A stretch of DNA of 64,000 nucleotides from the NCBI RefSeq assembly GCF_044704955.1, contig NC_091978.1, positions 360,158,001 to 360,222,000 of the forward strand. The letters are read 5' to 3'. The notes beneath the pieces are model-generated. The model ran no database searches. It was not told the origin of the DNA and was given only the letters and a program-made list of their open reading frames with translations. Positions 1-22,200 of this stretch are shown one piece after another. This DNA is from Pristiophorus japonicus. Taxonomy: Eukaryota. The stretch's first letter is position 1. Each line of letters begins with the position of its first letter. The position numbers were made by a program, and so were the translations under genes.

Positions 1-340
1 GAAGACCCTCTTGTTGATCCATTGGTACATTAAATAGCCAACCAGTGCCCACCAGTACATCAGCTTTGGCACGCAACGGCATGTGCAGTCCCAAGAGCCA
101 GCAGCGATCCATCCAACTTGCACAGTTCTGTACGGTTCAAGAAATAGTCTACTGTACTCATGTTGCTTTCAGACACTGAGACCATAGCGTACATAATTCA
201 AAAGGTCCTTTGCTTCCTTAATCTTCAGAGGATAGAGCTAAATGTCCGATCAGGATTAGCCGTGGCTCAGTAGTAGCACTCTCACCTCTGCCATGTTTCC
301 TGTCTGTCTCTCTGTACCTGCACTTCAAAAGATGGGTAGG

Positions 341-1065
341 TCATAGAATCATGGAATGGTTACAGCACAGCAGGAGGCCATTCGGCCATCGTGAGCATGC
401 CGGCTCTCTGCAAGAGCACTTCATCAAGCCCCACTCTCCCGCCCTTTCCCCGTAGCCCTGCAAATTTGTTTCCTTCAGGTACTTATCCAACTCCCTTTTG
501 AAAGCCACGATTGAGTCTGCCTCCGCCACCCTCGCAGACAGCGCATTCCAGATCCTAACCACTCGCTGCGTGAAAACGTTTTCCCTCGCGTCATGTTTGG
601 ATCTTCTGCCAATCACCTTAAATCTGTGTCCTCTGGTTCTCGACCCTTCCGCCAATGGGAACAGTTTCTCTCTCTCTACTCTGTCCAGACCCCTCATGAT
701 TTTGAACAACTCGATCAAATCTCCACTCAACCTTCTCTGCTCCAAGGAGAACAACCCCAGCTTCTCCAGTCTACCCACGGCCCCTCATCCCTGGAACCAT
801 TCTTGTCAATATTTTCTGTACCCACTCTAAGGCCTTCACATCCTTCCTAAAGTGCGGTGCCCAGAATTGGACACAATACTCCAGCTGGTGCCAATCCAGT
901 GTTTTACACAGGTTCATCACAACCTCCTTGTTTCTGTACTCTGTGCCTCTAGTTATAAAGCCCAGGATCCCAGATGCTTTTTCAATCGCTTTCTCAACCT
1001 GCCCTGCCACCTGCACATATACCCCTAGGTCTCTCTGTTCATGCACCCTCTTTAGAATTGTACCC
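341..1065 (-). mobile_element. CR1 LINE 3' fragment (shared with 18450-19120)
   Basis: [43 protein letters not shown]. Confidence 0.88.
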
Positions 1066-1237
1066 TTTCATTTATATTGTCTCTCTTAATTGGCTGTAAA
1101 GTGCTTTGGCATGTCCTGAGGTTGTGAAAGGTGCTATATAAATGCAAGTTCTTTCTTTCTTTCCCAGGTGTAATGCTGGCTGACAGGGAGCACTGGCCAG
1201 GGACTCATGGGTCCGTAGTCACTGATTTTCTCATTCA

Positions 1238-1757
1238 TACTTACATTGGAGGCAGTTCAGAGAAGGTTCACGAGGTTGATTCCTGAAATGAAGTGGGTGT
1301 CTTATGAAGAATGGTTGAGCAAATTGGGCCTATACTCATTGGAGTTTAGAAGATGGGAGGTGATCTTATTGAAAGGTATAAGATTATGAGGAGACTTGAC
1401 AGGGTAGATGCAGAGAGGATGTTTCCAGTCGGGGGGGGGAATCCAGAACTAGGGGGCATAGTTTCAGAATAAGGGGTCGCCCATTTAAGATGGAGATGAG
1501 GAGGAATTTCTTCTCTCAGAAGGTCATGAATCTTTGGAATTCTCGACCTCAGAGAGCTGTGCAGGCTGGGTCATTGAATATATTTAAGGTGGAGATAGAC
1601 AGATTTTTGAACGATAAGGGAGTCAAGAGTTATGGGGAGCGGGCAGGGAAATGGAGCTGAGGCCAAGATCAGATCAGCCGTGATCTTATTGAATGGTGGA
1701 GCAGGCTCGAGGGGCCAAATGGCCTACTCCTGCTCCTATTTTTTAAGTTCTTATGTT
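1238..1757 (+). mobile_element. CR1 LINE 3' fragment specific to the - paralog
   Basis: CR1 RT C-terminus and 3' UTR ending TTCTTATGTT; absent at the matching position near 18290. Confidence 0.85.
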
Positions 1758-3159
1758 AACTTGCTCACCGGCGCTCTCTCCAAGCACCACTTCTGACCAG
1801 GATCATGCGACTAGAAAACAAACCCGAGTACGTCTGTTTCCCAAGGAGCACCTATGATTCGTATATCCTGTCCCAATCCGATGTTAACACGCTTTTCCAA
1901 GAGGAAGAATGACTGGCCACTGAAAGATATGGGAATTATACCCTGTCGCCGGTAATGTGAGCAGTTGATAGTGAATAAAGACTCACATTGATGTTTGTTT
2001 TACTTACGGAATGTGGGTGACACTGGCAGAGTCAGCGTTTATTGCCCATCCCTCATTGCCCTCGAGAAGGTGGTGGTGAGCCGCCTTGGTGCTTGAACCG
2101 CTGCAGTCCGTGTGGTGAAGGTACTCCCACTGTGACTTTGTTGTAGCGGTTTGGTACAACTGGGAAGCTTGCTCGGCCATTTCAGAGGGAAGTTAAGAGT
2201 CAACCACGTTGCTGTGGGTCTGGAGTCACAGAGGCCAGAACTGGCGAGGGCGGCAAATTTTAAGGACCAGGTGGGTTTTTATGACAATCCGTTTGTCTTA
2301 TGGTCACCATTACTGGTACTAGCTTTTTTATTCCAGATTTATTTAATTGAATCTAAATTCCCCAGCTGCCATGGTGGGATTTGAATTCATGTCTCTGGAT
2401 TATTAGTCCAGGCCTCTGGATTATGAGTCCAGTAACCACGATGCTGCCGTTCCCTCTGGCGTGTTGATAACTGGCTGATTTCATTTCCAGACCCTCTAGA
2501 ATATGTGTGTGCTTATTTGTAACAGCAAAATGCACTGATCACATGACCTGATTGCTGATTGGTCTTCTTGGAGGATAAGACACACCCAGCAGTTTTTCTG
2601 GCAAGCAAAATTAGCACTGCCCTGCCTATGTAATCAGTGACTTTGCAAAGTGTATTTTGAGCCATTCTGACTGCCGACTCCAGACAGAAGAGAGCTCACT
2701 CGGAACAGACAGGGCTTACTCTCATGGGTTAAGACCATCTCCCACCCCCCAAGTGCCTGACCTTCCCCTCACACCCCAGCCCAAGTTTCTGAGATTCTCC
2801 TCCCGCCCAAGTGCCGGACACCAACACCCCCCCCCCTCAAAGTTCCTGACCTCTTCCTGCCCAAATTCTTGCCCCATGGATTCATAACCTTCTCCCCCCA
2901 ACAAGTTCCTGACCTTACCTCCCCCCCCTCCCCGACCATAGATGGGGCATTGTGTGTGGGTCACGGATTGTTAACAGGTTTACAGGTGAAGTGAATAATG
3001 ACATTGTTGTGACTTCCAGATTTCGTCCACTCCAATGATGTCACTTGTTACACACGCACTGTGTTTTGAGAAATCAACCAGGTGTAGGGGAGGAGAGGGA
3101 GAATACGGTACGGGTGTAAAGGGAGTGTCGTTGGAAGAACGTGATCCGCCTTCTCTGAA

Positions 3160-3305
3160 TTCCCTGTCACTCTCTCGCCCACGAGCCTCTCTCTGTCTCC
3201 CCAGTCTCTCTCTCTCCCTCATCTCTCTCTCTCTCGCTCTGTCCAGTCTCTCTCTCTCTCTCTCTGCCCCACTCTTTCTCTCTCTCCCCAGTCTCCCTCC
3301 CATCT
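3160..3305 (+). repeat. (CT)n-rich microsatellite / low-complexity tract
   Basis: Direct reading. Confidence 0.85.
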
Positions 3306-3739
3306 CAAATTTTTTTTCTCTAATAGAAGGCCGCAAAAATGTTCATGTAGATAATCACAGCGATATTCTAGGCAAAAGTCCTGGAGATAACCCAAAGCCC
3401 TGGAAGCAGCTCCAGTGGCGATGAGCTCCACGCGACTCGTGATTCAGCTGCACTTCTGGCTTCCTCGTATATCACACTGCACATTAGTGACCGGATCGAG
3501 CGCGCACGCACAAAAAAAGAGTGCGGAATCCAAGACGTGCATGCGCAGAAGTACACAAAAACGTTGTTGCAAATAATCACTCCACAAGATTATTCTGTCA
3601 AAGAATAACAGAAGTAATGCAAGGAAGATCTCGGAATGCAATTGCTATGATATGCTTACTCCCAATAGGGCGCCATCTAGTGTTCAGTTAACTACATGCA
3701 AGCACAAGCTTCTCAGGTCGTCAACTCATTTTTTCATAC

Positions 3740-3899
3740 CTTGGACGTGAAACGATTCTCTGGCAGTCCCCATTGCCCAGTTGTCCATAAGTTCCAGCTC
3801 CCCAGCCAAAGACAGATCCATTTTCACAAAGAGCCAAGGTATGGAGCTTCCCGCAGGCCACACGGACAACCTCCTGCGTATTTAGAGCACTTACCTGAG
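3740..3899 (-). CDS. HERC-like paralog (- copy) exon 2
   Basis: ttttgcag| [53 protein letters not shown] |gtatga; 160 nt, open; later exons would be off the left edge. Confidence 0.85.
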
Positions 3900-3981
3900 C
3901 TGCAAAATAAACAGCATATGAACATAAATACGAACAATGACAGACAGGTAAAGACGTTCTGGTCCATAGAGCCTGTCCCCT

Positions 3982-4300
3982 CAAAGCCTCCCTGATAAAA
4001 TGCAACATCCCCACTGACGCCTGGGAGCCCCTGGCTAAAGACCGCCCTAAGTGGCGCAAGTGCATCCGGGAGGGTGCTAAGCACCTCGAGTCTCGTCGCC
4101 GAGAGCATGCAGAAATCAAGCGCAGGCAGCGGAAAGAACGTGCGGAAAACCAGTCCCACCCACCCTTTCCCTCAACGACTATCTGTCCCACCTGTGACAG
4201 GGACTGTGGTTCTCCTATTGGACTGTTCAGCCACCTAAGGACTCATTTTAAGAATGGAAGCAAGTCTTCCTCAATTCCGAGGGACTGCCTATGATGATGA
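3982..4300 (+). mobile_element. RTE (BovB-like) LINE 3' fragment
   Basis: LKASLIKCNIP.D.WE.LA.DR.KWR and a zinc-knuckle-like CPTC; tail GGGACTGCCTATGATGATGA. Confidence 0.82.
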
Positions 4301-4689
4301 CACAATTGCAATACATTGTGTCTCATAATATATACTCTCCACCCCACCCAGCACCATGTGATCCCCTGGGCGAGTCAAAAAAACAGATTTTTTAAAAACT
4401 TTAAAAACCCAGGCCGAACATAGGCCGCGGGGCTGGACTTCCAAGCCTCGTGCAGGATCTCCTGCCTTGTGGCAGTTACTGCCTCTATTTCGGCCCCTTA
4501 GTGTACACAAGAGTGCATCCTACACCTTTCGCACTTTAAAGATGAAATATTGCCTTGGAATTTCTCATATTGTATTGCACAATAAAATAAAGGGAGACGC
4601 GGGGATGTCACTGACTAGTTGACTGTATCTCTTCTACACCCTCATTTTTTATTGCCTGTGGCACTGTCACCTGTTTCAGCTCCAACATG

Positions 4690-4880
4690 TGTTATGTATG
4701 TAAACTTTACTAGTGTGTAAGACTTGCCATCAGGGGGCACACCTGTTGGAGACCCAAGGGCAAGTATAAAAGGCAGTCTACCATGCTGCTTCCTCGCTCT
4801 GGAGTTACATTGTAGAGACCAAGGTCACAACAGTTTGAGCTTACAGTATACAGTCTTGTGGAGTTATTCTGAACTTAGCA
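4690..4880 (+). mobile_element. Solo LTR-like element
   Basis: Starts TGTTATG; internal TATAAAA; resembles the LTRs at 17307-17593 and 62581-62826. Confidence 0.55.
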
Positions 4881-6189
4881 CAACGCCCAACAAGACAGTG
4901 CAGCAGCACATCTATTCTTCATCACTCACTGACTGGACAAATTCCCCAATCTCAGGCGTGTCGCTGCAGGGAACTTCCAATCAGAAGCCAATCGCTTCTC
5001 CATAGGGCAATGAGGTAAATCAATCTACTCTTTAATGGTCTGTTTTAGAGCCGAATAGGCCTCAGAAGAATCGATCCTTCCATCTTCCCTGCCGCACCCA
5101 ACCAGGAGCAGCCTAGTTTCAGAGCATCGCAAGAAGGATGCAGGAGAAAAATGTCTTTAAACCCATTTAAAACAATGTTCATTCTTGGGATGTGGACTTC
5201 GCTGGCAAGGCAAAAAATGACCAAGGTCCATCTAGTTTGCCTTCTACCATCCTGGTAGTCGCTCGATCCAACGATAATGGAGATGTTGATTAATCTCTAT
5301 CAATTAGTCCACAACACATGCAGACATGACCCAAGGAAACACCCAGTGTGGGAACCATAGCTCCAAAGTCATCTATTCCACCCAAGCATGCTACACTTAC
5401 ATGTCATGTCCCCCATTTATCTGTGATTATAACATGCCCACCCATATTTTTACAGCTCCCAGTAAATAGGAACGCAGGAAAGTGGAAATTACCCTGGAGC
5501 CTAACTGGGCAGTCCAAAAAGCCAATATCCCCTCAATCACACACACCCTCAAATATTTATCGAATTCTCCCTTAAATATTTTTACATTATCTGCTTTCAT
5601 TGCCTCTCTGGGCAGTTCGATCCACACGACAGCACCTCCTAAACCCACAATGTCTACCTAGAAGGACAAGGGCAGCAGGCACATGGGAGCACCATCACCT
5701 GCAAGTTCCCCTCCATGTCACACACCATCCTGACTTGGAAATATATCGGCCGTTCTTTCATTGTGGCTGGGTCAAAATCCTGGAACTCCCTCCCTAACAG
5801 CACTGTGGGAGCACCTTCACCACACGGACTGCAGCGTTTCAAGAAAGTGGCTCACCACCACCTTCTCGAGGGCAAATAGGGATGGGCAATAAATGCCGGC
5901 CTTGCCAACGATGCCCACATCCCATGAATGAATTTTTAAAAAAAGTAGTTCACTCTACATAAAGTAGTAGTTAAATAAGTTGAAAAATTTTCCCCGAACT
6001 GTTGATTTTCCCTTCCTGCATCTATAGTTGTGATGCTGTGGTTCAGTTTTTACGCAGAAAGATCCTTGCTGTAAGAGTGTATATAATGTGCTTCGATAAT
6101 CTGTTCAATGCATGAGGAGACCAAAGATATATTAGGGTGGGAAGGGGTGCGGGAGGAGAGACAAGCGCTGCTTGAAGTCTAAATTAATT

Positions 6190-6935
6190 TGTGAAGAAAC
6201 TCGCCTGGTTTGTGCCTCCCATTAGTGCTTGTGGGGGGCAGTAACGGGGTGCCAAGGGGTTAGCGATCGGGCGTGGCAAATTCACCGATGCCTGTGAACC
6301 TCCCTGGTGGTTTTAAGTTGGCGATAGCACTTACCGCCTCGCTCTCTCGCACCCCATAGATTGTGACGTCATCCTGTGCACAGCGCCCCGTCACCGTCTC
6401 GGATGCAACATTCGCTCCCGCCCGCCTGCAGCATCACCAGGCGTTAGCAACTGCATCTGCAGGAGGTGTTGTCACCTGGGCTGGCCGCTTGGGCAGCAAT
6501 ATTTAAAGGCAGTGGTGGTCAGGTAGGGCAAACGTTATTACTCCCCCCAGTCTGGTGCCTCCTAATTGCTTTTGACGCCCCGCGTTTCCTCAGCCCGCTA
6601 CGCTCTTCCTATGTTTGGGGCTGCTACGCACATAACACAGGTCCCGTGACATCTCAGAGACAGCATTACGATTGATTGAACCCATCACTGACCCTGCCCT
6701 TTAAGCGAGGGGAGGAGCCTTGCACGGAACGCTGTTCAGCACTCTGCCACCCCCTCGCACACTTTAGCGCTCTAAGGCAAGTGGTAGCCTTTGATTTAGC
6801 GCTCCATTTCCCTCTTGGAGCGCTAAGGGTGAAGTTCCCCGGGAGCAGGCAAATCGTTTTCGCCCGCCGATACTTTTGCGCTCCTTCAAAAGTTAATCGC
6901 CCCAGTCGGGACGCCGCGCAATTTCTAGCCCTAAA
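6190..6935. mobile_element. Non-autonomous GC-rich MITE-like element; its counterpart in the + copy spans 13880-15600
   Basis: Ends match 13905-13970 and 15540-15600 in reverse complement. Confidence 0.55.
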
Positions 6936-6945
6936 TGCAACAATT

Positions 6946-7170
6946 CATCATAGGCAGTCACTCGGAATCGAGGAAGACTTGCTTCTGCTCCCAAAGTGAG
7001 TCCTTTGATGGCCGACAGTCCAATACGTGAACCACAGACCCTGTTACAGGTGGGACAGACATTCGTCGAGGGAAGGGGTGGGTGGGGCTGGTTTGCCGCG
7101 CGCTCCTTCCGCTGCCTGAGCTTGGCCTCTTCATGCTCTTTGCATTGAGACTCGACAGGGAGTAGCCGAG
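6946..7170 (-). mobile_element. RTE LINE 3' fragment
   Basis: RQRKERAANQPHPP...CPTCNRVCGSRIGL, with RTE tail. Confidence 0.78.
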
Positions 7171-7432
7171 GCGAATTGCGTCGGTGCATTTAAGGGGAAA
7201 CTGGATAAGCATATGAGGCAGAGGGATATGCTGATGGGGTGAGATGAAGTAGGGTCAGAGGAGGCTGGTTTGGAGCACATACACTGGCATAGCCCAGTCG
7301 GGCTGAATGGCCTGTTTCTGAGCCTTCTGTCCCAGGTCCAATGACAACATCCACAGAGCTGCTGTCAACACTTCCTGCTCCAAATAAATGACACCCTGTT
7401 TGTTTTTGTGAGTTTTGCGCTGTACATAACCC

Positions 7433-7494
7433 GAAATCGAAACTGCTGCACAGGAAACCCCCTGGGAATAGCAACTGTGAGAGAAAACGAAACT
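7433..7494 (-). promoter_or_regulatory. Intron-1 interferon-response module of the - paralog: two ISREs and an NF-kB site
   Basis: On the + strand: GAAATCGAAACT (7433-7444), GGAAACCCCC (7453-7462), AGAAAACGAAACT (7482-7494). Confidence 0.72.
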
Positions 7495-7775
7495 GATGAA
7501 CTGGGAACTTGCCGTTCCCTGGTCCTTGTCTGGGAAATTAAACCCAAATAATTGCGTTAAATTGCCATTGGCGAGTTTAATCAAAATAACCGTTAACTTT
7601 GGCCACAAGAGAGCAATATGCCCCAGACTCGGGGCGGGGGCGGTGGATTAAAAGTGTTTGGAACTGGGGGGGAAAAGGGATGAAATGCAGAATTATGAAA
7701 CTATCTTAAAGCCTGTGGGACGAAGGTGAGGGTGCTCACCCCTTCCCCTCTGCCCCGCTCAGTCTCAATGCTTAC

Positions 7776-8001
7776 CGAGGGGACACTCGCTCCTCTTCCT
7801 CCCAAGTTGCCCGTTAACGCCGCTGGAAAACACGGTGCCGTCGGCCAGGAGATACACCGAGTGCCCATCGCCACAACACACTTCCTTCACCGCCCGACGC
7901 CGTAAGCATTCGATTTCTCGCGGCTCGGAAAGGACCAGGCGATGCCCCCCCTGGTCGCGCAGTCCCAGCTGGGCAGACGCACCATCTCCCCAGCAAAACA
8001 T
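7776..8001 (-). CDS. HERC-like paralog (- copy) coding exon 1
   Basis: Nearly identical to 12994-13225 apart from a 6-nt in-frame deletion (GVNGQLG); donor G|GTAAG intact; 226 nt. Confidence 0.85.
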
Positions 8002-8569
8002 CTTCTTCTCTGCCGCACCGCCCCCGCTCTGGGCAGCTCGGGCAAGGGCTGGCTGGTCCCTCTGTGCCCCAGGAGCACTGGGGGAGACTGACTTACAGCA
8101 GGCCAGCCAGTCTCATTTGGGCAAGCAGACAAGGAAGCGATCTCAGTATCTCTGATGCATCCTGCCTGCTCGCTGCAGGAATGACTCCAGCAATTCACCA
8201 ATCTCACAGTCCATACGGTGTTTTTTTTATAAACTTTCATTCACGTGATGTGGCCGTCGGCCAGCATTTATTGCCCATCCCCAATTGTCCTTTGAGAGGG
8301 AGGTGGTTTTACAAATAAAAAAACAAAGGTTTGCATTTATAGAGCGACTTTCACGACGCCCAGACGTCCCAAAGCGCTTTACAGCCAATGAAGTACTTTT
8401 CTAGTGTGGCCAATTACGGCAATATAGGAAACATAGCAGCCGATAGGATAATTAGAGATAATCTGTTTTTCGGGATATGGATTGAGGGCTAAATATTGGG
8501 CAGGTCACCAGGAGAACTTTCTTGCTCTTCTTCGAATAATACCCGAGAGGGGCAGACAGGGTTTCGCTT

Positions 8570-9053
8570 TCATCATAGGCGGTCCCTCGAAATCGAGGAA
8601 GACTTGCTTTCACTCCAAAAGTGAGTTCTCAGGTGGCTGAACAGTCCAATACAGGAAATACAGTCTCTGTCGCAGATGGGACAGACAGTGGTTGAAGGAA
8701 AGGGTGGGTGGGGAGTCTGGTTTGCCGCACACTCCTTCCGCTGCCTGCGCTTGATTTCTGCATGCTCTCGGCGATGAGACTCGAGGTGTTCAGCGCCCTC
8801 CCGGATGCACTTCCGCCACTTAGTGCGATCTTGGGCCAGGGACTCCCAGGTGTCGGTGGGGATGTTGCACTTTATCAAGGAAACTTTGAGGGTGTCCTTG
8901 AAACGTTTCCTCTGCCCACCTGTGACTCGCTTGCCGTGTAGGAGTTCCGAGTAGAGCGCTTGTTTTGGGAGTCTTGTGTCGGGCATGCGGACAATGTGGC
9001 CCGCCCAAGGGAGCTGGTCGAGTGTGGTCAGTGCTTCGAAGCTGGGGATGTTC
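8570..9053 (-). mobile_element. RTE (BovB-like) LINE 3' fragment inserted in a SINE
   Basis: [37 protein letters not shown]. Confidence 0.88.
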
Positions 9054-9665
9054 CTTACAGTGCAGCTCCTCCCTCCTCCAGCACTGCAGTGAAGCACCGA
9101 CCCAGATTATGTGCTCAGGTACCTGGAGTGGGACACGATGGATTGGAGCAGACATGCTTAAGTGTAATGTGAGTACCAAAGCATTGTAATCAATGAGTCA
9201 GCGCTGCGGGAAACTTCAGTGTAATACCGAGGGAGCACGGCATTGTCAGATGGAAAAGATCCCATGGCACGATTTGAATAGAGTGACCACACATCCCCGT
9301 TTTCCCGCGACGGTCCTGGAACGAGGGACTGTGTCCCCAGGAAAAACAATGTCCCCAGAAACGACCCCGTTCCAGGAAACTTGGTCCCCGAATACGCACG
9401 GGTTCAAATCAGGAGCCACCCGACCCCGAGCTGTCCTGTGGGCGGTCCATCATGTGGGCGGAGCTGAGCGGCAAGGCCAGTTGGTGGGAGGGATGTCAAT
9501 CTCCTGTTTTCAACCAACAACAAGAACTTGTGTTTATACAGCGCCTTTAACGTAGTGAAACATCCCAAGACGCTTGAGAAATTAGGGCAGGTGGCCAAAA
9601 GCTTGGTCAAAGAGGTAGATTTTAAGCAACATCTTGAAGGAGGACAGAGAGGTGGAGAGGTTTAA

Positions 9666-10812
9666 CATAAGAACATAAGAAATAGGAGCAGGAGAAGACC
9701 ATATGGCCCCTTGAGCCTGGTCCGCCATTTAATACAATCATGGCTGACCGATCATGGACTCAGGTCCACTTCCCTGTCCGCTCTCCATAACCCCTTATTC
9801 CCTTATTGTTTAAGAAACTGTCTATTTCTATCTTAAATTTATTCAATGTCCCGGCTTCCACAGCTCACTGAGGCAGCGAATTCCACAGATTTACAACCCT
9901 CTGCAAGGAGAAATTTCTCCTCATCGCAGTTTTAAATGGGCGGCCCCTTATTCTAAGATTATGCCCTCTAGTTCTCGTCTCTCCTATCAGTGGAAACATC
10001 CTCTCTGCATCCACCTTGTTAAGCCCTCTCATAATCTTATACATTTTGACAAGAGCACCTCTCCTTCTTCTGAATTCCAATGAATAGAAGCCCAAACTAC
10101 TCAACCTTTCCTCATACGTCAACCCACTTATCTCCGGAATCAACCTTGTGAACCTTCTCTGAACTGCCTCCAAAGCAAGTATATCCTTTTGTAAATATGG
10201 AAACCAAAACTGTATGCAGTATTCCAGTTGTGGCCTCACCAATACCCTGTATAACTGTAGCAAGACTTTGCTGCTTTATACTCCATCCCCTTTGCAATAA
10301 AGGCCAAGATACCATTGGCCTTCCTGATCACTTGCTGTACCTGCATACTAACCTTTTGTGTTTCATGCACAAGTACCCCCAGGTCCTGCTGCACTGCAGC
10401 AGTTTGCAATCTTTCTCCATTTAAATAATAACTTGCTCTTTGATTTTTTCTGCCAAAGTGCATGACCTCACACTTTCCAACATTATACTTCATCTGCCAA
10501 ATTTTTGCCCACTTACTTATCCTGGCTATGTCCTTTTGCAGATTTTTTGTGTCCTCCTCACACATTGCTTTTCCTCTCATCTTTGTATCATCGGCAAACT
10601 TGGCTTCGTTACACTCAGTCCCTTCTTCCAAGTCGTTAATATAAATTGTAAATAGTTGGGGTCCCAGCACTGATCCCTGCGGCACCCCACTAGTTACTGA
10701 TTGCCAACCCGAGAATGAACCATTTATCCCTATTCTCTGTTTTCTGTTCGTTAGCCAATCCTCTATCCATGCCAATATATTATCCCCAACTCCGTGAACT
10801 TTTATCTTGTGC
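9666..10812 (-). mobile_element. CR1 LINE fragment in the spacer, interrupting an L2 fragment
   Basis: [28 protein letters not shown]; L2 sequence resumes near 10813. Confidence 0.9.
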
Positions 10813-11329
10813 AGAGCTTAGGATCCAGTCACCAGAAGGCACGGCCACCAATGGTTGAGAGATTATAATCAGGGATGCTCCAGAGGGCAGAATTAGAGGA
10901 GCGCAGACATCTCGGGGGGTTGTGGGGCTGGAGGAAATTACTGAGATAGGGAGGGGTGAAGCTATGGAGGGATTTGAAAACAAGGATGAGAATTTTGATG
11001 TTAATTTATGCAGAAATCAAGCCCTGTGGCCATCGTACACATGTTCCGCCCCCCCCCCCCAACTCCCACCCTTCCCATCCCTCCCACCAAATCCCCAGAC
11101 AGTTTTGTGAAATTCAGTTGAACAGAAATCGACCCCGAAGCCAAAATGTCCAAGTAGCGGGGGCCGCTGGTAACCGGATTAATGAGCGGGGATTGAAGCC
11201 GGTCGGTGTGGGTATCCCGGGAGCCGGATCAGAGCATGCTCCGCGACCCCGAATGGTGGGGGAGGGTCAGGCTGTGAGGAAGGGGAGGAGTCTCAGATGG
11301 TGTCGGGGAGGGTCGGGCCATGAGGACGG

Positions 11330-11526
11330 GGCAACCAAATTTTAATTTGATTTAAGGTTTCGTTAAAGTTTAAAATTGTTCATTTGTGGGTTCTGGTGCT
11401 CTTGTCAAAAGGGGGCATTTGATTTAAGTTTCAACAAAAATAGTTGTGGAGCTGTTGCACAGGTGGACACCGGAGGGATTGGAGAGCAACGTTACAGCAG
11501 GTAACAGAATTTTAATTTGATTTGTT
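11330..11526 (+). mobile_element. Two tandem Tx1/L1-clade 3' end fragments
   Basis: Ends read GNQILI* and RWTPEGLE...GNRILI*, the same family as 39640-40035; separated by AATAGTTGTGGAGCTGTTG. Confidence 0.6.
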
Positions 11527-11631
11527 AAGCTTTTGGTCACCTGCCCTAATTTCTCAAGGGTCTTGGGACGATTCACTATGTTAAAGGCGTTATATAAATA
11601 CAAGTTGTTGTTGTTGTTGTTGGCTGAAAAC

Positions 11632-11862
11632 AGGAGATTGACATCCCTCCCACCAATTGGAACCAGCCTTGTCGCTCAGCCCTGCCCACTTGATTGGCCG
11701 CCCACAGTAAACCTCGGGGTCAGGTGGCTCCTGATTTGAACCCGTGTGTATTCAGGGACAAGTTTCCGGGAGCGGGGACTTTGCCGGGGACGGTGTTTTC
11801 CCGGGAGACACAATCCCTCGCCCGAGGACCGTCGCGGGAAAACGGGGACGTGTGGTCACCCT
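11632..11862. mobile_element. hAT-Blackjack-like MITE (also at about 9278-9505 in the other arm)
   Basis: Terminus GTGGTCACCCTA (reverse complement TAGGGTGACCAC); degenerate opposite end. Confidence 0.5.
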
Positions 11863-12072
11863 ATTCAAATCGTGCCATGGGATCTTTTCCATCCGACAAC
11901 GCCGCGCTCCCTCAGTATTGCACTGAAGTTTCCCACAGCGCTGACTCATTGATTACAATGTTGTGGTACTCACATTACACTTAAGCACGTCTGCTCCAAT
12001 CCATCGAGCCCCACTCCAGATACCTGAGCACATAATCTGGGTCGGTGCTTTGGTGCAGTGCTGGAGGAGGGA

Positions 12073-12382
12073 ACTTCCGTCACGATCACCAGAAGAGCCG
12101 AGGGCCCAGGGGCAGCACACACTGCGCGCACTAGGTCCGTGCAGCAGAACAGGTCTCCAGTCGTCCTGGTTCAACCCTTGCCACTGGATAGAGGCCTAGC
12201 TCTGGCAAGCCCGTGTGGTGGCTGATGTGCAATGGTCGCCACACGTTAACAAAACCACGCACAGGCATCTTCCACCCTTCGAGTTCAGGACTGGGACATC
12301 GGGTCCTTCATTGAAACATCTGTGAACTCGTGTGGAAGCAAGTCATCCTCGTTCGAGGGACCGCCTATGCCGATGATGATGA
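12073..12382 (+). mobile_element. RTE-tailed short element with 11-bp target-site duplication
   Basis: TGGAGGAGGGA at 12062-12072 and 12383-12393; 3' end GAGGGACCGCCTATG..GATGATG. Confidence 0.75.
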
Positions 12383-12993
12383 TGGAGGAGGGAGGAGCTG
12401 CACTGTGAGGAAGTGCGGTCCTTTGGATGAGATGTTAAAGCGAGGCCCTGTCTGCCCCTCTCGGGTGGGTGTATTATTGGAAAGAGCAGGAAAGTTCTCC
12501 TGGAGACTTGCCCAATATTTATCCCTCAATCCACAATCCGAAAAACAGATTATCTGCTAATTATCATATTGTGTGCCGTGTTTCCTATATTGCAGTAATT
12601 GGCCACACTTGAAAAGTATTTCATTGGCTGTAAAGCGCTTTGGGACATCCGGTGGTCGTGAAAGGCGCTATATAAATGCAAACCGTTGTTTTTTATTTGT
12701 AAAACCACCACCTTCTCAAAGGACAATTGGGGATGGGCAATAAATGCTGGCCGACGGCCACATCACGTGAATGAATGTTTATAAAAAACACCGTTGGTGA
12801 ATTGCTGGAGTCATTCCTGCAGCGAGCAGGCAGGATGCATCAGAGATACTGAGATCGCTTCCTTGTCTGCTTGCCCAAATGAGACTGGCTGGCCTGCTGT
12901 AAGTCAGTCTCCCCCAGTGCTCCTGGGGCACAGAGGGACCAGCCAGCCCTTGCCCGAGCTGCCCAGAGCGGGGGCGGTGCGGCAGAGAAGAAG

Positions 12994-13225
12994 ATGTTTT
13001 GCTGGGGAGATGGTGCGTCTGCTCAGCTGGGACTGCGCGACCAGGGGGGGCATCGCCTGGTCCTTTCCGAGCCGCGAGAAATCGAATGCTTACGGCGTCG
13101 GGCGGTGAAGGAAGTGTGTTGTGGCGATGGGCACTCGGTGTATCTCCTGGCCGACGGCACCGTGTTTTCCAGCGGCGTTAACGGGAAAGGGCAACTTGGG
13201 AGGAAGAGGAGCGAGTGTCCCCTCG
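12994..13225 (+). CDS. HERC-like gene (+ copy) coding exon 1
   Basis: AAGATG start, [14 protein letters not shown]...[29 protein letters not shown]; donor G|GTAAG at 13226; 232 nt, phase 1. Confidence 0.92.
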
Positions 13226-16200
13226 GTAAGCATTGAGACTGAGCGGGGCAGAGGGGAAGGGGTGAGCACCCTCACCTTCGTCCCACAGGCTTTAAGATAG
13301 TTTCACATTTCTGCATTTCATCCCTTTCCCCCCCAGTTCCAAACACTTTTAATCCACCGCCCCCGCCCCGAGTCTGGGGCATATTGCTCTCTTGTGGCCA
13401 AAGTTAACGGTTATTTTGATTAAACTCGCCAATGGCAATTTAACGCAATTAATTTCCCAGACAAGGACCAGGGAACGGCAAGTTCCCAGTTCATCAGTTT
13501 CGTTTTCTCTCACAGTTGCTATTCCCAGGGGGTTTCCTGTGCAGCAGTTTTGATTTCCAATCTCGAAACTGGGTTATGTACAGCGCAAAACTCACAAAAC
13601 AAACAGGGTGTCATTTATTTGAAGCAGGAAGTGTTGACAGCAGCTCTGCGCATGTTGTCATTGTACCTGGGACAGAAGGCTCAGAAACAGGCCATTCAGC
13701 CCGACTGGGCTATGCCAGTGTATGTGCTCCAAACCAGCCTCCTCTGACCCTACTTCATCTCACCCCATCAGCATATCCCTCTCCCTCATATGCTTATCCA
13801 GTTTCCCCTTAAATGCACCGACGCAATTCGCCTCAGCTACTCCCTGTGGTAGTAATTTTTCAAATTTCAAATTCTGTAGGACTAGAGATTGGGTCACAGG
13901 GTGCTAACTTTTGAAGGAGTGCAAAAGTATCGGCCAGGCGAAAACGATTTACTGCTCTGGGGGAAGTTGTATCGCCAGCGGAGCGTGGCGTTACGGGTGG
14001 GAGCGGGCGTTACGGGTGGGAGCGTGACGTTACGGGTGGGAGCGGGCGTTACGGGTGGGAGCGTGGCGTTACGGGTGGGAGCGTGACGTTACGGGTGGGA
14101 GCGTGACGTTACGGGTGGGAGCGTGGCGTTACGGGTGGGAGCGGGCGTTACGGGTGGGAGCGTGACGTTACGGGTGGGAGCGTGACGTTACGGGTGGGAG
14201 CGTGGCGTTACGGGTGGGAGCGGGCGTTACGGGTGGGAGCGTGACGTTACGGGTGGGAGCGGGCGTTACGGGTGGGAGCGTGGCGTTACGGGTGGGAGTG
14301 TGGCGTTACGGGTGGGAGCGGGCGTTACGGGTGGGAGCGTGACGTTACGGGTGGGAGCGTGCGTTACGGGTGGGAGCGTGCGTTACGGGTGGGAGCGTGA
14401 TGTTACGGGTGGGAGCGTGACGTTACGGGTGGGAGCGGGCGTTACGGGTGGGAGTGTGGCGTTACGGGTGGGAGCGGGCGTTACGGGTGGGAGCGTGACG
14501 TTACGGGTGGGAGCGTGGCGTTACGGGTGGGAGCGTGATGTTACGGGTGGGAGCGTGACGTTACGGGTGGGAGCGTGACGTTACGGGTGGGAGCGTGACG
14601 TTACGGGTGGGAGCGTGGCGTTACGGGTGGGAGCGGGCGTTACGGGTGGGAGCGTGACGTTACGGGTGGGAGCGGGCGTTACGGGTGGGAGCGTGGCGTT
14701 ACGGGTGGGAGCGGGCGTTACGGGTGGGAGCGTGACGTTACGGGTGGGAGCGGGCGTTACGGGTGGGAGCGTGGCGTTACGGGTGGGAGCGGGCGTTACG
14801 GGTGGGAGCGTGACGTTACGGGTGGGAGCGGGCGTTACGGGTGGGAGCGTGGCGTTACGGGTGGGAGTGTGGCGTTACGGGTGGGAGCGGGCGTTACGGG
14901 TGGGAGCGTGACGTTACGGGTGGGAGCGGGCGTTACGGGTGGGAGCGTGCGTTACGGGTGGGAGCGTGCGTTACGGGTGGGAGCGTGACGTTACGGGTGG
15001 GAGCGGGCGTTACGGGTGGGAGCGTGACGTTACGGGTGGGAGCGTGACGTTACGGGTGGGAGCGGGCGTTACGGGTGGGAGCGTGACGTTACGGGTGGGA
15101 GCGGGCGTTACGGGTGGGAGCGTGACGTTACGGGTGGGAGCGGGCGTTACGGGTGGGAGCGGGCGTTACGGGTGGGAGCGGGCGTTACGGGTGGGAGCGT
15201 GACGTTACGGGTGGGAGCGTGACGTTACGGGTGGGAGCGTGACGTTACGGGTGGGAGTGGGCGTTACGGGTGGGAGCGGGCGTTACGGGTGGGAGCGTGA
15301 CGTTACGGGTGGGAGCGTGACGTTACGGGTGGGAGTGGGCGTTACGGGTGGGAGCGTGACGTTACGGGTCGGAGCGGGCGTTACGGGTGGGAGCGTGACG
15401 TTACGGGTCGGAGCGGGCGTTACGGGTGGGAGCGGGGCGCTACGGATCGAAGCGGGGTGTTACTGATTACCGCCGCCACTAAATCCCCGTGGAATTTCGC
15501 GGGAGTCGGTCGCAGCACCGCGCCCGTGCGAAGAGTGGTTTGCGCCTCGTTAGTGCCCTCTGGGGGTGCTAACGGGAGGCGCAAACACCTCAAATTTCTC
15601 CCCTTAAGAACCTAATAAGACAAAGTGAGATATTGTCAGAATCCGTGTGTTTCACTTTTAACCCAGCAGCCATTGAGTAGAATGTCAGCACTCTCAAATC
15701 TCCAGTCTCCCCCTCTTAAACTCAACTGCAGAGATGGCCATATGAATGCGGTGAAAGTATGGAGGATAAGTAGTGAAATGTTTAATCTCAATTTCTGTAG
15801 AATAAATGTGGCTTTGAACTGGTGCCCAGACTGCTGAGAGGACTAGAGGTATGTTTGAAATCTGTTACTATACCATTGACAGTGACTCTGGAATCAAATG
15901 AAACAGTATCAGAAAGGATCTCGTAATAAACCTCTTATCCATGTAGTTACATTTTTTATTGGCCATTCATTGGTCAGTGTAATTATCGTAGTGAATAATA
16001 TATGCGTTTCACATACATTACCAGGCATCGCAATTTCAAGTTGCATGAGGCCAGATCTAGGTTAGATGTCTGGAGGGGTTTATTTCCCAGAGAATAGTGG
16101 ACCTCTGGAACAGGCTGCCATCTCATGCAAAGGATTCACTGAATTCCTTCAAGTGAGAGCTGGATCTGTTTCTGGCTGGGGTGGAGATCACCTCTTACAG

Positions 16201-19200
16201 AAGGTCGGTACTGCAGGAAATTCAGGACCAGGGTGATCTCCTGAACTACTTCCGATCGCCTAGATGGTCCAGAGAGGAATTTCCCCCCAAATTGGCCTGG
16301 GTTTTTTATGTTTGTTTGCCTCGCCCTGGAGATCACATGGTATCGGGTGGCGTGGAGTGTATATGTTGTGATACACAAGGTATCGCAATTGTGTGGGACA
16401 AGCTTGATGGACCCGAGACTCATTGTTCGTATTTATGTTCGTATGCTGTTTATTTTACAGCTCAGATAAGTGCTCTAAATACGCAGAAGATTGTCCGTGT
16501 GGCCTGCGGGAAGCTCCATACCTTGGCTCTTTGTGAAAATGGATCTGTCTTTGGCTGGGGAGCTGGAACTTATGGACAACTGGGCAATGGGGACTGCCAG
16601 AGAATCGTTTCACGTCCAAGGTATGAAGAAATAAGTCGACTACCTGAGAAGCTTGTGCCTGCATGTAGTTAACTGAACACTAGATGGTGCCCTATTGGGA
16701 ATAAGCATATCATAGCAATTGCATTCCGAGGTCTTCCTTGTATTACTTCTGTTATTCTTTGACGGAATGTTCGAGAGGGTCTGGAAATAAAAACAACTGG
16801 TTATTGGCATACCAGAGGGAACAGTAGCGTACAGGTTATGTTACTGGACGAGTAATCCAGAGGTCTGGACAAATATTCCGGATCCACTGATGGGGGAGAC
16901 TAGAACTAGGGAGCATAGTCTCAGAAGGGGCCGCCCATTTAAAACTGAGATGAGGAGGAATTTCTTCTCTCAGAGGGTTGTGAATCTGTGGAATTCACTG
17001 CCTCAGTGAGCTGTGGAAACTGGGACGTTGAATAAATTTAAAACAGAGATAGGCAGTTTCTTAACAGATAAGGGGATAAGGGGTTATGGGGAACGGGGGG
17101 TGGGGGGAAGTAGACCTGAGTCCATGATCGGATCAGCCATGATCTTATTGAATGGCGGAGCAGGCTCAAGGGACAGTATGGCCGACTCCTGCTCCTATTT
17201 CTTATGTTCTTATGTGAACACTGATGGACAGGTAAAGACCATCTGATCCATTGAGCCTGTCCCACCCGATTGCGATACCTTGTGTATCACAATATATACT
17301 CTCCACTATTATGTCTGTAATGTACTTATGAATGACTCTACGAGGCAATGTGTTGTACTCAAACTGTAATGAACTTGGTCCTTTATTCGTAACTCCAGAG
17401 TGAGGCAGCCGCATGGTGGCTACCCTTTTATACAGCCCCTGTCACCAGGGCAGGAAACCCCGGTTGCATCCTCTAGTGGTGCCAGCATAGTATATACACA
17501 GTGTAAATCTTATTGACAGGTAAACAAATCTCCATCTTATGCAACTATACAGTGACTACACCGAGAGTATATCTATTGTCTGCATATGTAACATCCACCC
17601 CACCCGTAACCATGATAAAGGCAAAACAACAGATAAAGTGAGTTTAAATTCCACCATGGCAGCTGGGGAATTTAGATTCAGTTAAATAAATCTGGCAAAA
17701 AAATGCCAATACCAGTAATGGTGTTCATAAAACAACTGGATTGTTGTAAAAATCCATCTGGTCCTTTAGGGAAGAAAATCTGCCGTCCTTACCCAGTCTG
17801 GCCTATATGTGACTCCAGACCCACAGTAGTGTGGTTGACTCTTAACTGTCCTCTGAAATGGCCCAGCAAGCCACTCAGTTGTACCAAACTGCTACAACAA
17901 AGTCACAGTGGGAATACCTTCACCAAACAGGCTGCAACGGTTCAAACACCAAGGCGCTCACCACCACCTTCTCAAGGGCAATGAGGGATGGGCAATAAAC
18001 ATTGGCCTTGCCAGCAACGCCCACATTCCATAAATTAAAAAAAAACACCAAGCACTACTCACTATCAACTGCTCACATTACCAGCGACATTTCCATATCT
18101 CTCAGCGGCCAGTCATTCTCCCTCTTGGAAAAGCATGTTTACATCGGATTGGGACGGGATATACCAATCCTAGGTGCTCCTTGGGAAGCAGGGATCAGCC
18201 TATGTCGGGGATGGCGTACTAGGGATAGTTTTCCAGTCGCATGATCCTGGTCAAAAGTGGAGCTCGGTGGGAGCGCTGGTCAGCAATTTAAATGAGAAAA
18301 TCAGTGACAGCGGACCCATGAGTCCCTGGCCAGTGCTCCCTATCAGCCAGCTTTTATACCTGGAAAAGAAAGAAAGTACTTGCATTTATATAACACCTTT
18401 CACAACCTCAGGATGTGTCAAAGCACTTTACAGCCAATGAAGAGAAGCAACTAGGGGTACAATGTTAAAGGGGGTGCATGAACAGAGAGACCTGGGGTAT
18501 ATGTACGCAAATCGGTGAAGGTGGTAGGGCAGGTTGAGAAAGCGATTGAAAAATATCTGGGATCCTGGGCTTTATAAATAGAGGCATAGAGTACAAAAGC
18601 AAGGAAGTTATGATAAACCTTTATAAAACACTGGTTTGGCCACAACTGGAGTATTGTGTCCAATTCTGGGCACCGCACATTAGGAAGGATGTGAAGGCTT
18701 TAGAGTGGGTGCAAAAAAGATTTACAAGAATGGTTCCAGGGATGAGAGACTTCAGTTACGTGGATACACTGGAGAGTTCTCCTTAGAGCAGGGACGATTG
18801 AGAGGTGATTTTATAGATGTGTTCAAAGATAGAGTAGATAAGAGAGAAACTGTTCCCATTGACAGAAGGGTTGAGACCCAGAGGACACAGATTTAAGGTG
18901 ATTGGCAGAAGAACCAAAGGCGACATGAGGAAAAACTTTTTAACGCAGCGAGTGGTTATGATCTGGAATGCACTGCCTCAGAGGATGTTGGAGGTATATT
19001 CAATTGTGGCTTTCAAAAGGGAGTTGGATAAGTATTTGAATTAAAAAAATGTGCAGGGCTACGGGGAAAGGGTGGGGGAGTGGGACTGGCTGAAGTGCTC
19101 TTGTAGAGAGCCGGCACGGCCCCACCTCCCCCCACGGCTTGGAAACCACTGCCTGACTGGAAGCCCACCCTTTACGTCGCACACAAGCGTGCTGGGAAAC

Positions 19201-22200
19201 CCGAACTTCCGGGTCCCGCCGTACCGTGCGGGTGGGAAATGTGAAAATCCAGCCCAATAACTTTGAGATCAGGCTGGAACTTTCCGCTTGTCCAGGACAG
19301 TCGAGCGAGAGGACACAGCCTGTGCTTGAAGGGGGAAAAATTCAAAACTAATCTGTGTAAACAATATTTCAATGAGCGAGTGGTCAATCTATGGAACAGG
19401 CTCCCTTGGGAAATGGTGGAAGCAATTAATGTGGGTTAATTCGATAGATTTCTGTCATTACATTGATGGATACAATGTGTGAGTAATTTGAGACCCGACG
19501 TGTGGTGAGTGTAATGTGCTTGGGTGGCGTCTTCCTCATGTCATGTCTGGGTCTGTTGTAGACTCATTGAAGAAGAGGAGAAGAAGAAGAAGGTAGAGAT
19601 TGATGACTATGGTTAGTCAACAAATCGTTCCAATGGAAGTAACAGGTGCCGATGGAAAAACAGGACCAATGGGTGTTAACCATGACTTGACTTGGTATTA
19701 TTAAACAGTCGGAATTGGAATAGCAACACATTACCGCTGGTTTTTCACAGGATGGAAACCTTGTGAAGCACCGGAACCACCGAGGAGATGTTTGGTGCCA
19801 TGTCCTACTCCTTCAAACACCAACCATCATAAATGGTAGCAGCGGGAATCACGCTCCGGCGTGCGGTAGAAATGAAACGGAATCTGTCACCAACACTGGC
19901 CCCTGTAACGCTGTACTCAGTCGCACACCCTTCACATACTTTAACAGGAGAGTTGAAAAAAAATGTCTTTCATTTGCAGGAGAGTGGAAGGATTTAGAGT
20001 TCCGATAGTGCAGATTACATGTGGCCGCTATCACTCACTGGCTCTTTCTAGAGGTAACACGTTATCATTTATAAATCAAAACTTTCAGCATCATGCCGGT
20101 CGTTGGGATTTCTAATTAAAATGTTTGTCCAATCTCTTTAGATAGCGCCGTCTATTCCTGGGGACAGAATAGTTACGGGCAACTGGGACTTGGTGAAGGT
20201 ATCTACACCCAGCTACGTCCCCAACGTGTGACCTCCCTGACTGGGATCCCAGTGGCTCAGATCGCTGCAGGGGGCAGACACAGCTTCGCCCTGTCTCTCT
20301 CGGGGGCGGTGTTCGGTTGGGGGAAGAACGATCACGGACAGCTGGGGCTCAAGGACACAGAGAGTAAGAGCACACCGGGGCGCGTTTCTTTCTAGCGGTT
20401 AGTCGGATGCCAGTAAAGGGATGATCAGGATCGATCGAAATGGAACGGGCTTCTTGTCCACTGGTGCTGCTGCTTTGAGCCTCGACATCCTTTGCGACTG
20501 TGACAAAGGCAAACTATCCCTCCTCGTCCTTCTTGACTTGTCTGCAGCCTTTGACACGGTTGACCACACCATCCGTCTCCACCTTTTGTCCAGTTGGGTG
20601 GGACTGCACTCACCTGGTTCCATTCTTAGCTATCAAATCGTAGCCAGAGAATCACCTGCATTGGCTTCTCTTCCTGCCCCTACATCATTACCTCTAGTGT
20701 CCCCCAATGATCTATCCTTGGCCCCCTCCAATTTGTCATCTACATGTTGCCGCTTGGCGACACCATCCAAAAACACAGCGTCAGTTTCCATGTTTACGGT
20801 GATGCCACCCAGCTCTACCTCAGTACCACATCTCTCGACCCCTCCACGGTCTCTAAATGGTCAGACTGCTTGTCCGACATCCAGTTCTAGATGAGCAGAA
20901 AATTTCTCCAATCGAATATTGGGAAGACTAAAGCCATTGGCCTTGAAATTCCGTGTTGGCCTTCCCGCGGGCATTTTAGAGAAAAAATACGCACCTACCT
21001 TAAGCTGCTGCCCACGTTGGACTTTCCGATGCTGAGGCCTCTCCTGACTGCCAGTCGCAGTGTGTGCACGCCCACATGTGCGCAGGCCTCGAGCTGGAGT
21101 CACATGGCTCTGGGCAGCCAATCAGGAAAGTATCATAGTAATAGGAGTTCTAAAAGATCCTGAACTCCGATTACATTGATTGAGAAACAGCCCCAAACAT
21201 CCAAAACACTAACAAAAAAATAGAAAATATACACTGCATTCCTTTAAATTAAAGTTATTAATGTCTTAAAAAAATATATATTTTCCCGATTTAAAAAAAA
21301 AAAAATTTTTTAAAATAAATTTACCGTTGTGGGGAGGGTTTTTAATGATAAAATATGTTTTCATAACTTTATTTTTATGTGTTTTTGTGTTTTTTAAAAC
21401 ACTATTGCCTGTAAAAGTAGGCTATGCAGGCGCAACATTTTTGAAGACATTTGTATGCGTAAATATCGGAAATTTGCACTTACAAATATCCTCGCTCCCG
21501 ATCTGCGGAGAATCTGTCAAGCCAGAAACTTAACAGGTCGGATAAGCCGGTTTTCAGCACATGCACATTGCGCGCCGAAAACCGACTTTTCCGACGCCTT
21601 CCCGGGAAGGCCGGGATTTCAGGGCCACTGTGTTCGGTCTCCACCACAAACTCCGTTCCCTAGCCACTGACTCCATCCCTCTCCCCAACTTCTGTCTGAG
21701 GCTGAACCAGACTGCTCGCAATCTTTGTCATATTTGACATTGAAACAAGCTTTTGACCACATATCCACAGCAGAACTACGACCGCCTATTTCCAGCTCTG
21801 TAACATCGCCCGTCTCCGCCCTTGCCTCAGCTCATCACTCAAAGTTTCTGGGGGCTTTCCCTGGGGCACCGGGTGGAGCCTGGCTTGTGTCTGCAGAGGA
21901 CACAGTCCAGACGGAGCCACATAGATGAGGATTGTGGGACCTTTCCGTCCTTCCACCTCAAATTTAGACCAGTTTAAGTGACAATGTAGTTGATTCAGCA
22001 GGGTGAAAGGAGCACTGTTGCTAATGAGTAATAACTAATTGGATTTCTGCCCTCCCCACTATCCAAGTGATTGTAGAAAAATTATGAGCATTGTGATGGG
22101 TGGCATTTTTAAAAAAGCATGTAATAAAAAACCCAAAATATCCCAAAAGGAACATACTAGCCCTTAAACCTTTCCTCCTTTCTTCCCTTCTTCTTGTGCT

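Follow-up and report, generated by a model that had tools for sequence, protein, structure and literature searches.

The closest described systems to the genes analyzed here are the duplicated HERC5/6 genes of Myotis bats and hystricognath rodents. According to PMC7775381, the RCC1-like domains (RLDs) of these duplicates are >95% identical and cluster within species, which was ascribed to ongoing gene conversion; their spacer evolves fastest and has selected codons at aa 409-660. The window analyzed in this study, a whole stretch of 64 kb from the Japanese sawshark Pristiophorus japonicus, contains the 5' ends of two divergent ligase genes of the HERC5/6 clade. Like the bat and rodent genes, the sawshark pair combines a shared RLD with a diverging spacer. 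However, the mammalian case involves a HERC5-HERC6 chimera that was attributed to unequal crossing over (PMC7775381), whereas the sawshark has an inverted duplicate of a single HERC5/6 gene. Furthermore, most of the sawshark HECT domain is homogenised too and even the spacers group by species, unlike in bats and rodents. Positive selection was tested in the mammals, while the sawshark spacer offers a hint from sequence.

Two other systems are related. The non-mammalian HERC5/6 gene, the pro-orthologue of mammalian HERC5 and HERC6, has the same RLD-spacer-HECT architecture and belongs to the same clade as the sawshark pair; PMC10003058 lists the elephant shark with HERC7 and with one HERC5/6 gene, compared to two head-to-head genes in the sawshark. 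Fish HERC7 is also a small HERC with motifs of the interferon-stimulated response element (ISRE) near its start and with species-specific copy gains (PMC10003058, PMC11277259 and PMC12234341), but the sawshark pair lies outside the clade that we read as HERC7. A literature search, judged mostly from abstracts, returned no paper on the sawshark locus or on duplicated elasmobranch HERC5/6 genes; supplements may list shark copies. The sawshark gene pair is already present in public gene models and its mechanism has a precedent. What the pair adds is an extension of the bat and rodent pattern, HERC5/6 duplicates with a common RLD and different spacers, to cartilaginous fishes.

The account that we favor, and consider probable, starts with an old inverted duplication of the whole HERC5/6 gene. 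Gene conversion would keep the exon-1 region, the RLD and much of the HECT domain alike, while the helical spacer would escape conversion and diverge, possibly under selection. Copies in inverted orientation could undergo conversion and yet escape the deletions that result from crossovers between tandem copies. Interferon would induce each gene through its own intron-1 ISRE, and both proteins may conjugate ISG15 or ubiquitin via the HECT cysteine by analogy with mammalian HERC5 and HERC6, which would make them putative antiviral ligases. A common RLD with different spacer surfaces would then give the two proteins different partners or a different sensitivity to antagonists.

Self-BLAST confirmed the predicted head-to-head pair: the ATGs at 8001 (minus strand) and 12994 (plus strand) open the same exon 1. 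As also predicted, exons 1 and 2 are open in both copies and have intact AG/GT splice sites. The plus exon 1 is a 100% match to P0001, a model of 1,024 aa from Pristiophorus japonicus that carries the name 'probable HERC6', which bears out the assignment to a cartilaginous fish. The minus exons 1-2 translate exactly to aa 1-129 of the models P0014 and P0002, including a 2-aa gap and three substitutions. P0014 is an open frame of 1,026 aa, and P0002 is an 837-aa short isoform of the minus gene. The first two exons of each copy are as follows.

12994..13225, plus strand: coding exon 1 of the plus copy, aa 1-77 of P0001
16461..16620, plus strand: exon 2 of the plus copy, AG/GT sites, translation equal to P0001
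7776..8001, minus strand: coding exon 1 of the minus copy, aa 1-75 of P0014, two codons fewer than in the plus copy
3740..3899, minus strand: exon 2 of the minus copy, three non-synonymous differences from the plus copy

The inverted blocks 398-9604 and 11527-19116 are colinear, with self-BLAST E-values down to 0, far beyond chance. The original prediction of a ~19-kb quasi-palindrome is correct in this respect, but the palindrome is not dense: the aligned share is 4,081/9,207 bp (44%) in the left arm and 4,086/7,590 bp (54%) in the right arm, and the unaligned remainder of both consists of copy-specific repeat and other sequence. A spacer of 1.9 kb had been described between the genes. It exists as the gap between the innermost mirror blocks but is not the intergenic distance; from ATG to ATG it is 4,992 bp. 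A stretch of about 1.15 kb in this gap matches copies of a long interspersed nuclear element (LINE) with a reverse transcriptase gene, located at 46-48 kb and at 55-57 kb.

9070..9604: left inner mirror block, pairs with 11527-12072 (55/534 mismatches)
11527..12072: right inner mirror block, pairs with 9070-9604
9605..11526: inner gap of 1,922 bp, occupied at about 9664-10810 by a repeat of LINE type that recurs many times in the window
17639..19116: distal intron-2 mirror blocks of the plus copy, pairing with 398-1235 and 1748-2389; 12-13% diverged and largely repeat-derived
398..2389: minus-copy counterparts of these distal intron-2 blocks, split by a repeat (about 1237-1759) that is not at the matching place in the plus copy

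The boundaries 370..19120 that had been given for the duplicated unit are merely the points where alignable sequence ends near the window edge. Positions 1-397 have no mirror match in 19117-26000 except for one of 33 bp (E 0.1). The duplication comprises the whole gene and runs off the window; we consider the pair likely to be an old inverted duplication of this kind. A gene of the HERC5/6 clade would be expected in the HERC3 cluster, between FAM13A and PPM1K/PYURF. In fused models from Rhincodon, Hypanus and Pristis the HERC5/6 orthologue adjoins other small HERCs on the same strand. This suggests an ancestral same-strand order of another small HERC, the HERC5/6 gene and a gene of the second non-mammalian clade; the first of these may be HERC3. 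With such an ancestral order, the minus copy is probably the inverted addition. The fused two-gene models themselves (P0018, P0142, P0153 and P0006, from Rhincodon, Hypanus, Pristis and Prochilodus) are probably annotation errors, which are nevertheless informative on gene order.

The similarity between the copies is a mosaic. From 12994 to 58634 the plus copy has fourteen exons with AG/GT sites, whose translation is exactly aa 1-622 of P0001; the gene extends beyond 64000 with its HECT exons outside the window. Exons 3-11 (19980..41893) encode the rest of the RLD and the start of the spacer, aa 131-458.

19980-20053, 20142-20363, 22332-22423, 24831-24958 and 33704-33810, plus strand: exons 3-7, AG/GT sites, translation equal to P0001
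34929-34993, 38683-38810, 40326-40385 and 41788-41893, plus strand: exons 8-11, AG/GT sites, translation equal to P0001
49490-49679, 58217-58401 and 58518-58634, plus strand: exons 12-14, the divergent spacer, aa 459-622

The identity between the plus and minus proteins is 97.5% over aa 1-360, 95.9% over 361-458, only 69.3% over 459-660 and again 92.9% over 661-1024. Counted by residue, 13/456 differ in the N-terminal part, 51/164 in exons 12-14 and 29/62 in exon 13. The expectation that the RLD is the diversifying interface is thus reversed: the RLD is homogenised and the spacer is divergent. On the DNA level the start of the two genes lies in a tract of near-identity.

12714..13847, plus strand: near-identical tract of the plus copy, covering the upstream region, exon 1 and 620 bp of intron 1; 11/1,115 mismatches, sharp 5' edge
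7155..8297, minus strand: near-identical tract of the minus copy, upper end approximate

The longest mirror block has 28/270 mismatches up to 12713 and 11/1,115 after it; a change-point as sharp as this occurred in 0/300 permutations. In 609 bp of 5' intron 1 there are 9 mismatches (1.5%), compared to 228/1,961 (11.6%) in three far non-coding blocks (Fisher p 3e-18). Exons 1-2 differ between the copies by one synonymous and three non-synonymous changes plus a 6-nt gap. The pair therefore carries what gene conversion would leave behind, a sharply bounded tract of near-identity that includes silent and intronic sites, and conversion is the likely cause of the similarity in the exon-1 region, the RLD and the HECT domain.

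Could purifying selection alone keep the RLD, the HECT domain and a regulatory intron 1 alike? The two domains are conserved, part of the tract is promoter-side sequence and another part holds an ISRE match, and the spacer is also faster in comparisons between species. For 17 elasmobranch rows, with Callorhinchus left out, the ratio of spacer to N-terminal distance is 1.13-2.86 in 133 between-species pairs (median 1.83). The same ratio is 13.6 in the sawshark pair, 6.2 in a pair from the sevengill shark Heptranchias and 4.0 in a pair from the skate Rhinoraja. Since the N-terminal part is only about 77-80% identical between species, it is not constrained enough to stay 97% alike. The single synonymous difference in exons 1-2 and the abrupt edge next to the intronic contrast also argue against selection as the sole cause, and we regard this explanation as improbable.

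Trees of three segments agree with each other. In all of them, spacer included, the sawshark copies are each other's closest relatives (support 100/97 or better), and the topology is identical throughout; what changes is the branch length from copy to copy (0.03, 0.47 and 0.08). The minimum non-synonymous divergence, obtained from plus codons and minus residues, rises from 0.013 in exons 1-11 to 0.174 in exons 12-14, with 0.278 in exon 13 taken by itself. The value for exons 12-14 exceeds the far non-coding figure (Fisher p 0.003), but it is not a dN/dS: the reference blocks are non-coding, lie 30-50 kb away, were picked as alignable and were maybe converted at another time. The excess hints at diversifying selection on the spacer.

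Three points speak against the combination of conversion and spacer divergence. The minus-copy DNA covers exons 1-2 only, and in the spacer the minus copy is compared at the residue level. The far non-coding blocks are partly repeat-derived, with 77%, 55% and 11% matching third places. Finally, the intron-1 tract contains a regulatory motif, so that constraint may add to the contrast. The separate idea that the 3' part of the near-identical tract is itself repeat-derived found no support; 13226-13847 has no third-place match.

The Heptranchias and Rhinoraja pairs bear on the age of the duplication. Heptranchias has two HERC5/6 models with adjacent accessions (P0004 and P0015) and Rhinoraja two sets (P0145 and P0027); both pairs have a near-identical N-terminal part and a more divergent spacer, a pattern for which haplotype duplication is possible. 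These models are what one expects if the duplication predates the sawshark lineage, is common to Heptranchias or wider, and has lost its signs of orthology by concerted evolution. Exon 13 fits as well: the distance between the sawshark copies is 0.72, compared to 0.61 and 0.72 to Heptranchias XP_067850557. Opposed to this are the segment trees, all three of which pair the copies within species, and the finding that most other chondrichthyans returned one HERC5/6 gene only. We consider an older duplication rather unlikely; it is compatible with the conversion part of the explanation that we favor. The predicted lineage-specific duplication accordingly holds in the sense that the copies pair within species, while the two models each in Heptranchias and Rhinoraja take away some of its exclusiveness.

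Short isoforms were also considered as a mark of a shared duplication. The X2 isoforms P0002 and Heptranchias P0003 both end in a frameshifted downstream HECT exon and lose the catalytic lobe. This candidate was rejected, and it speaks against the older duplication: each tail reads the downstream exon in a shifted frame (runs of 20 and 19 against shuffled maxima of 6 and 8) and is no mark of orthology. The isoforms end as exon skipping would make them end.

The minus copy was predicted to continue beyond its two exons, and this is borne out by the full-length model P0014 with its HECT domain and by spliced contigs, one of which continues past exon 2; exons 3 onward of P0014 presumably lie to the left of the window. 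It is conceivable that this copy is transcribed but decaying, with an intact look that is kept by conversion. Minus exon 1 has lost two codons in frame (7810-7815 region), immediately ahead of the GQLG motif of its first RCC1 repeat. No other row among 18 chondrichthyan ones shows this loss, which occurs in DNA-type as well as spliced contigs and weighs against two working genes; the annotated isoform P0002 with its frameshifted, truncated HECT domain points in the same direction. On the other hand, a comparable short isoform exists in Heptranchias, the two copies have taken equal shares of the spacer changes (23 vs 23, 16 ties), and the open frame of P0014 keeps the catalytic cysteine and is predicted to fold with confidence (mean pLDDT 88.6). 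We give little credence to decay.

Contigs from 4/24 listed public runs were compared with positions 1-12430 only, i.e. with the minus-copy side. Record 17 of run X6 (1,371 nt) joins 8169-7776 to 3899-3739 and agrees with the minus copy letter for letter (0 differences, 0 gaps), its specific letters included; it extends 816 nt past exon 2, off the compared stretch. Record 26 of run X7 (605 nt) has the same 7776-to-3899 joint with 0 other letters and 0 gaps, and run X5 contributes an exon-2 piece of 134 nt. Plus-copy letters did not appear at exon 2 in this comparison, which is no sign that they are absent from the runs. The minus copy is spliced with its own letters, and the splice suggests that these contigs are RNA. 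The transcribed 5' part reaches at least 8169, which corresponds to 12826 in the plus copy. In run X1, which is guessed to be DNA, pieces 7440-8288 and 3406-3955 are identical to the minus copy.

These contigs also bear on the concern that the locus is an assembly artefact in which two haplotypes or a fold-back were joined as an inversion. Inverted near-identical arms are a familiar pattern of mis-assembly. Further points count against a real inverted pair: no listed contig spans the compared stretch or crosses the junction, and orientation rests on the assembly alone; the gene models probably derive from this same assembly; X1 may be the assembly's own sample; and X5, X6 and X7 all come from one study, with none on record as RNA. 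Nevertheless, the far blocks differ by ~12%, the arms have many copy-specific insertions and the models differ at 31% of spacer residues, which together is too much for alleles or a fold-back; the minus-specific letters also occur in public DNA-type and spliced contigs. An artefact is very improbable.

Next we consider the family to which the pair belongs. The RLD (PF25390) covers aa 1-355 of P0001 and 1-353 of P0014, with six RCC1 repeats, and both gene models have a complete HECT domain (PF00632 positions 3-304 of 306) whose exons are outside the window. Cys994 of the HECT domain is nearly invariant in the family alignment; both proteins keep this catalytic cysteine and the C-terminal phenylalanine. 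With one N-terminal RLD and a C-terminal HECT domain with its cysteine, the pair qualifies by sequence as small HERC E3 ligases.

Reference rows such as HERC5 and HERC4 came from a search of representative proteins in which long repeat proteins predominated. In the trees the pair sits in a chondrichthyan group; the surrounding clade also holds HERC5 of the pika and proteins named HERC6 from mammal, reptile, amphibian, coelacanth, lungfish and gar. Callorhinchus P0147 is sister to the elasmobranch rows in the IQ-TREE analysis. The support of the HERC5/6 node is 100/100 with IQ-TREE. The approximately unbiased (AU) test rejected a grouping with the second non-mammalian clade (p 1e-45) and with HERC3/4 (p 3e-74); both constrained topologies are 72.3 log-likelihood units worse. 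This agrees with the prediction of a HERC5/6-like gene rather than one related to HERC3/4, and it also sets the pair apart from the HERC7-like clade. Several HERC5/6 orthologues carry the database name 'HERC4', which is misleading because the AU test rejects the HERC3/4 grouping. The placement has its weak sides. Local support for the node was only 0.559 in FastTree with 51 rows; IQ-TREE was run with LG+G4 on 34 rows after 17 close or redundant rows had been dropped and with no mixture model; and the trees contain one HERC5 row (pika) and no named HERC7 row.

The second non-mammalian clade appears to be HERC7, judging from its distribution and from PMC10003058. The sawshark has separate members of it, P0307 and P0337. 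In this HERC7-like clade (P0299-P0339) many sharks and rays have several models per species (3 in Cetorhinus, 3 in Mustelus, 2 in sawshark), and the chondrichthyan ones are mostly named HERC3 or HERC4 in databases. The turtle protein P0348 (Pelodiscus), named HERC5, also falls there and not with mammalian HERC5.

PMC6002735 places the origin of HERC6 after the split of cartilaginous fishes. On the age of HERC5/6 our tree sides with the later papers, PMC10003058 and PMC11277259, and not with PMC6002735; it backs an origin at the base of jawed vertebrates. Human HERC5 and mouse HERC6 are ISG15 E3 ligases. ISG15 emerged in gnathostomes according to PMC5381560.

We then examined the regulatory sequence around both starts. 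A strict ISRE pattern has two matches in 64 kb, both at mirror sites in intron 1, where 0.12 are expected; 1/100 shuffles reached two.

13496..13509, plus strand: intron-1 match to the ISRE consensus, plus copy
7481..7494, minus strand: intron-1 match to the ISRE consensus, minus copy
7433-7444, minus strand: second ISRE core, in the minus copy only
8562..8571, minus strand: IRF-type GAAANNGAAA core on the upstream side of the minus copy, with no counterpart in the plus copy

Two facts diminish the case for induction of each gene by interferon. The strict pattern extends the consensus in PMC11277259 by two positions and was chosen after the site had been seen; and both matches lie inside the near-identical tract and thus represent one duplicated site. 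Matches of NF-kB type are at chance level in the window (23 found, 25.75 expected).

The original prediction also held that the genes may be co-regulated from a shared divergent region. In favor of a single bidirectional promoter or enhancer in the inner gap are the divergent orientation and the observed/expected CpG ratio of the inner mirror blocks (0.67 and 0.71), which is above the window average of 0.49. Bidirectional promoter pairs have divergent starts within about 1 kb. In the sawshark the relevant positions, 8169 and 12826, are ~4.7 kb apart; these are the 5' end of the minus contig and its plus-copy counterpart, not mapped starts. Moreover, the inner gap (9605-11526) is mostly LINE, has a CpG ratio of 0.41 and contains no match to an ISRE or IRF core, while each copy has its own upstream duplicate and its own ISRE match. 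A shared region seems an unlikely control element for both genes, although the inner mirror blocks may hold an enhancer. Co-induction, if real, would more likely come from the duplicated elements than from a shared promoter.

The structure of the minus-copy protein P0014, the only one folded, was predicted with AlphaFold2 from an 82-row alignment. The model shows a beta-propeller, an all-helical spacer and the HECT domain; pLDDT falls locally to 75-82 at the 2-aa loss. The modelled RLD superimposes on RLD2 of HERC2 with a Z of 48.6 and a root-mean-square deviation of 1.9 over 344 residues. Divergence is highest at about aa 544-574 of P0014, a stretch that is predicted to span two long helices, 528-554 and 559-585, and the loop between them.

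The top Foldseek match of the P0014 model is full-length E6AP (E 6.5e-33, TM score 0.71 on the target), for which solved structures exist. With a small-HERC profile the alignment to E6AP is unbroken and takes in both the spacer and the HECT domain (profile 443-1037, E 1e-126). E6AP (UBE3A) differs from the small HERCs in that it lacks an RLD, is only ~25% identical and has an insertion with an LxxLL motif that they are without. The divergent hairpin falls shortly (about 35 residues) before this insertion. We take the motif to be the binding site of papillomavirus E6; titles of structure entries name E6AP-E6 complexes. After VIA re-ranking full-length E6AP was not among the 50 rows; single-domain matches fill the list and the spacer was barely tested there. 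The likeness of the modelled spacer to E6AP is a lead on fold, not on function.

A more speculative proposal, which we think has some chance of being right but would not bet on, is that, throughout the jawed vertebrates, HERC5/6 uses the exon-13 hairpin as a specificity surface that faces pathogens. On this view the gene was duplicated in sharks and skates on at least three occasions, with the RLD kept in common and the spacer split on each of them, and the spacer would be homologous to the helical domain of E6AP. If this were true, the sawshark pair would be a natural two-allele experiment for the small-HERC spacer. With an RLD that is alike and an exon 13 that differs, a domain swap between the copies would isolate the role of the spacer, which is an open question according to PMC7775381.

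The introns of the plus copy contain several repeats. A 20-bp G-rich minisatellite at 13980-15463 (~76 units, strong GC skew) is present in intron 1 of the plus copy only and starts ~130 bp past the end of the near-identical tract. A 38-bp minisatellite at 24041-24506 in intron 5 has 12 units with 96% matches. An inverted pair of young LINEs with a reverse transcriptase domain, 45827-47923 and 55257-57355 (96% over 2.1 kb), brackets exon 12, the first divergent spacer exon. Inverted LINEs around this exon could favor exon skipping, circular RNA or local inversion, or could block conversion.

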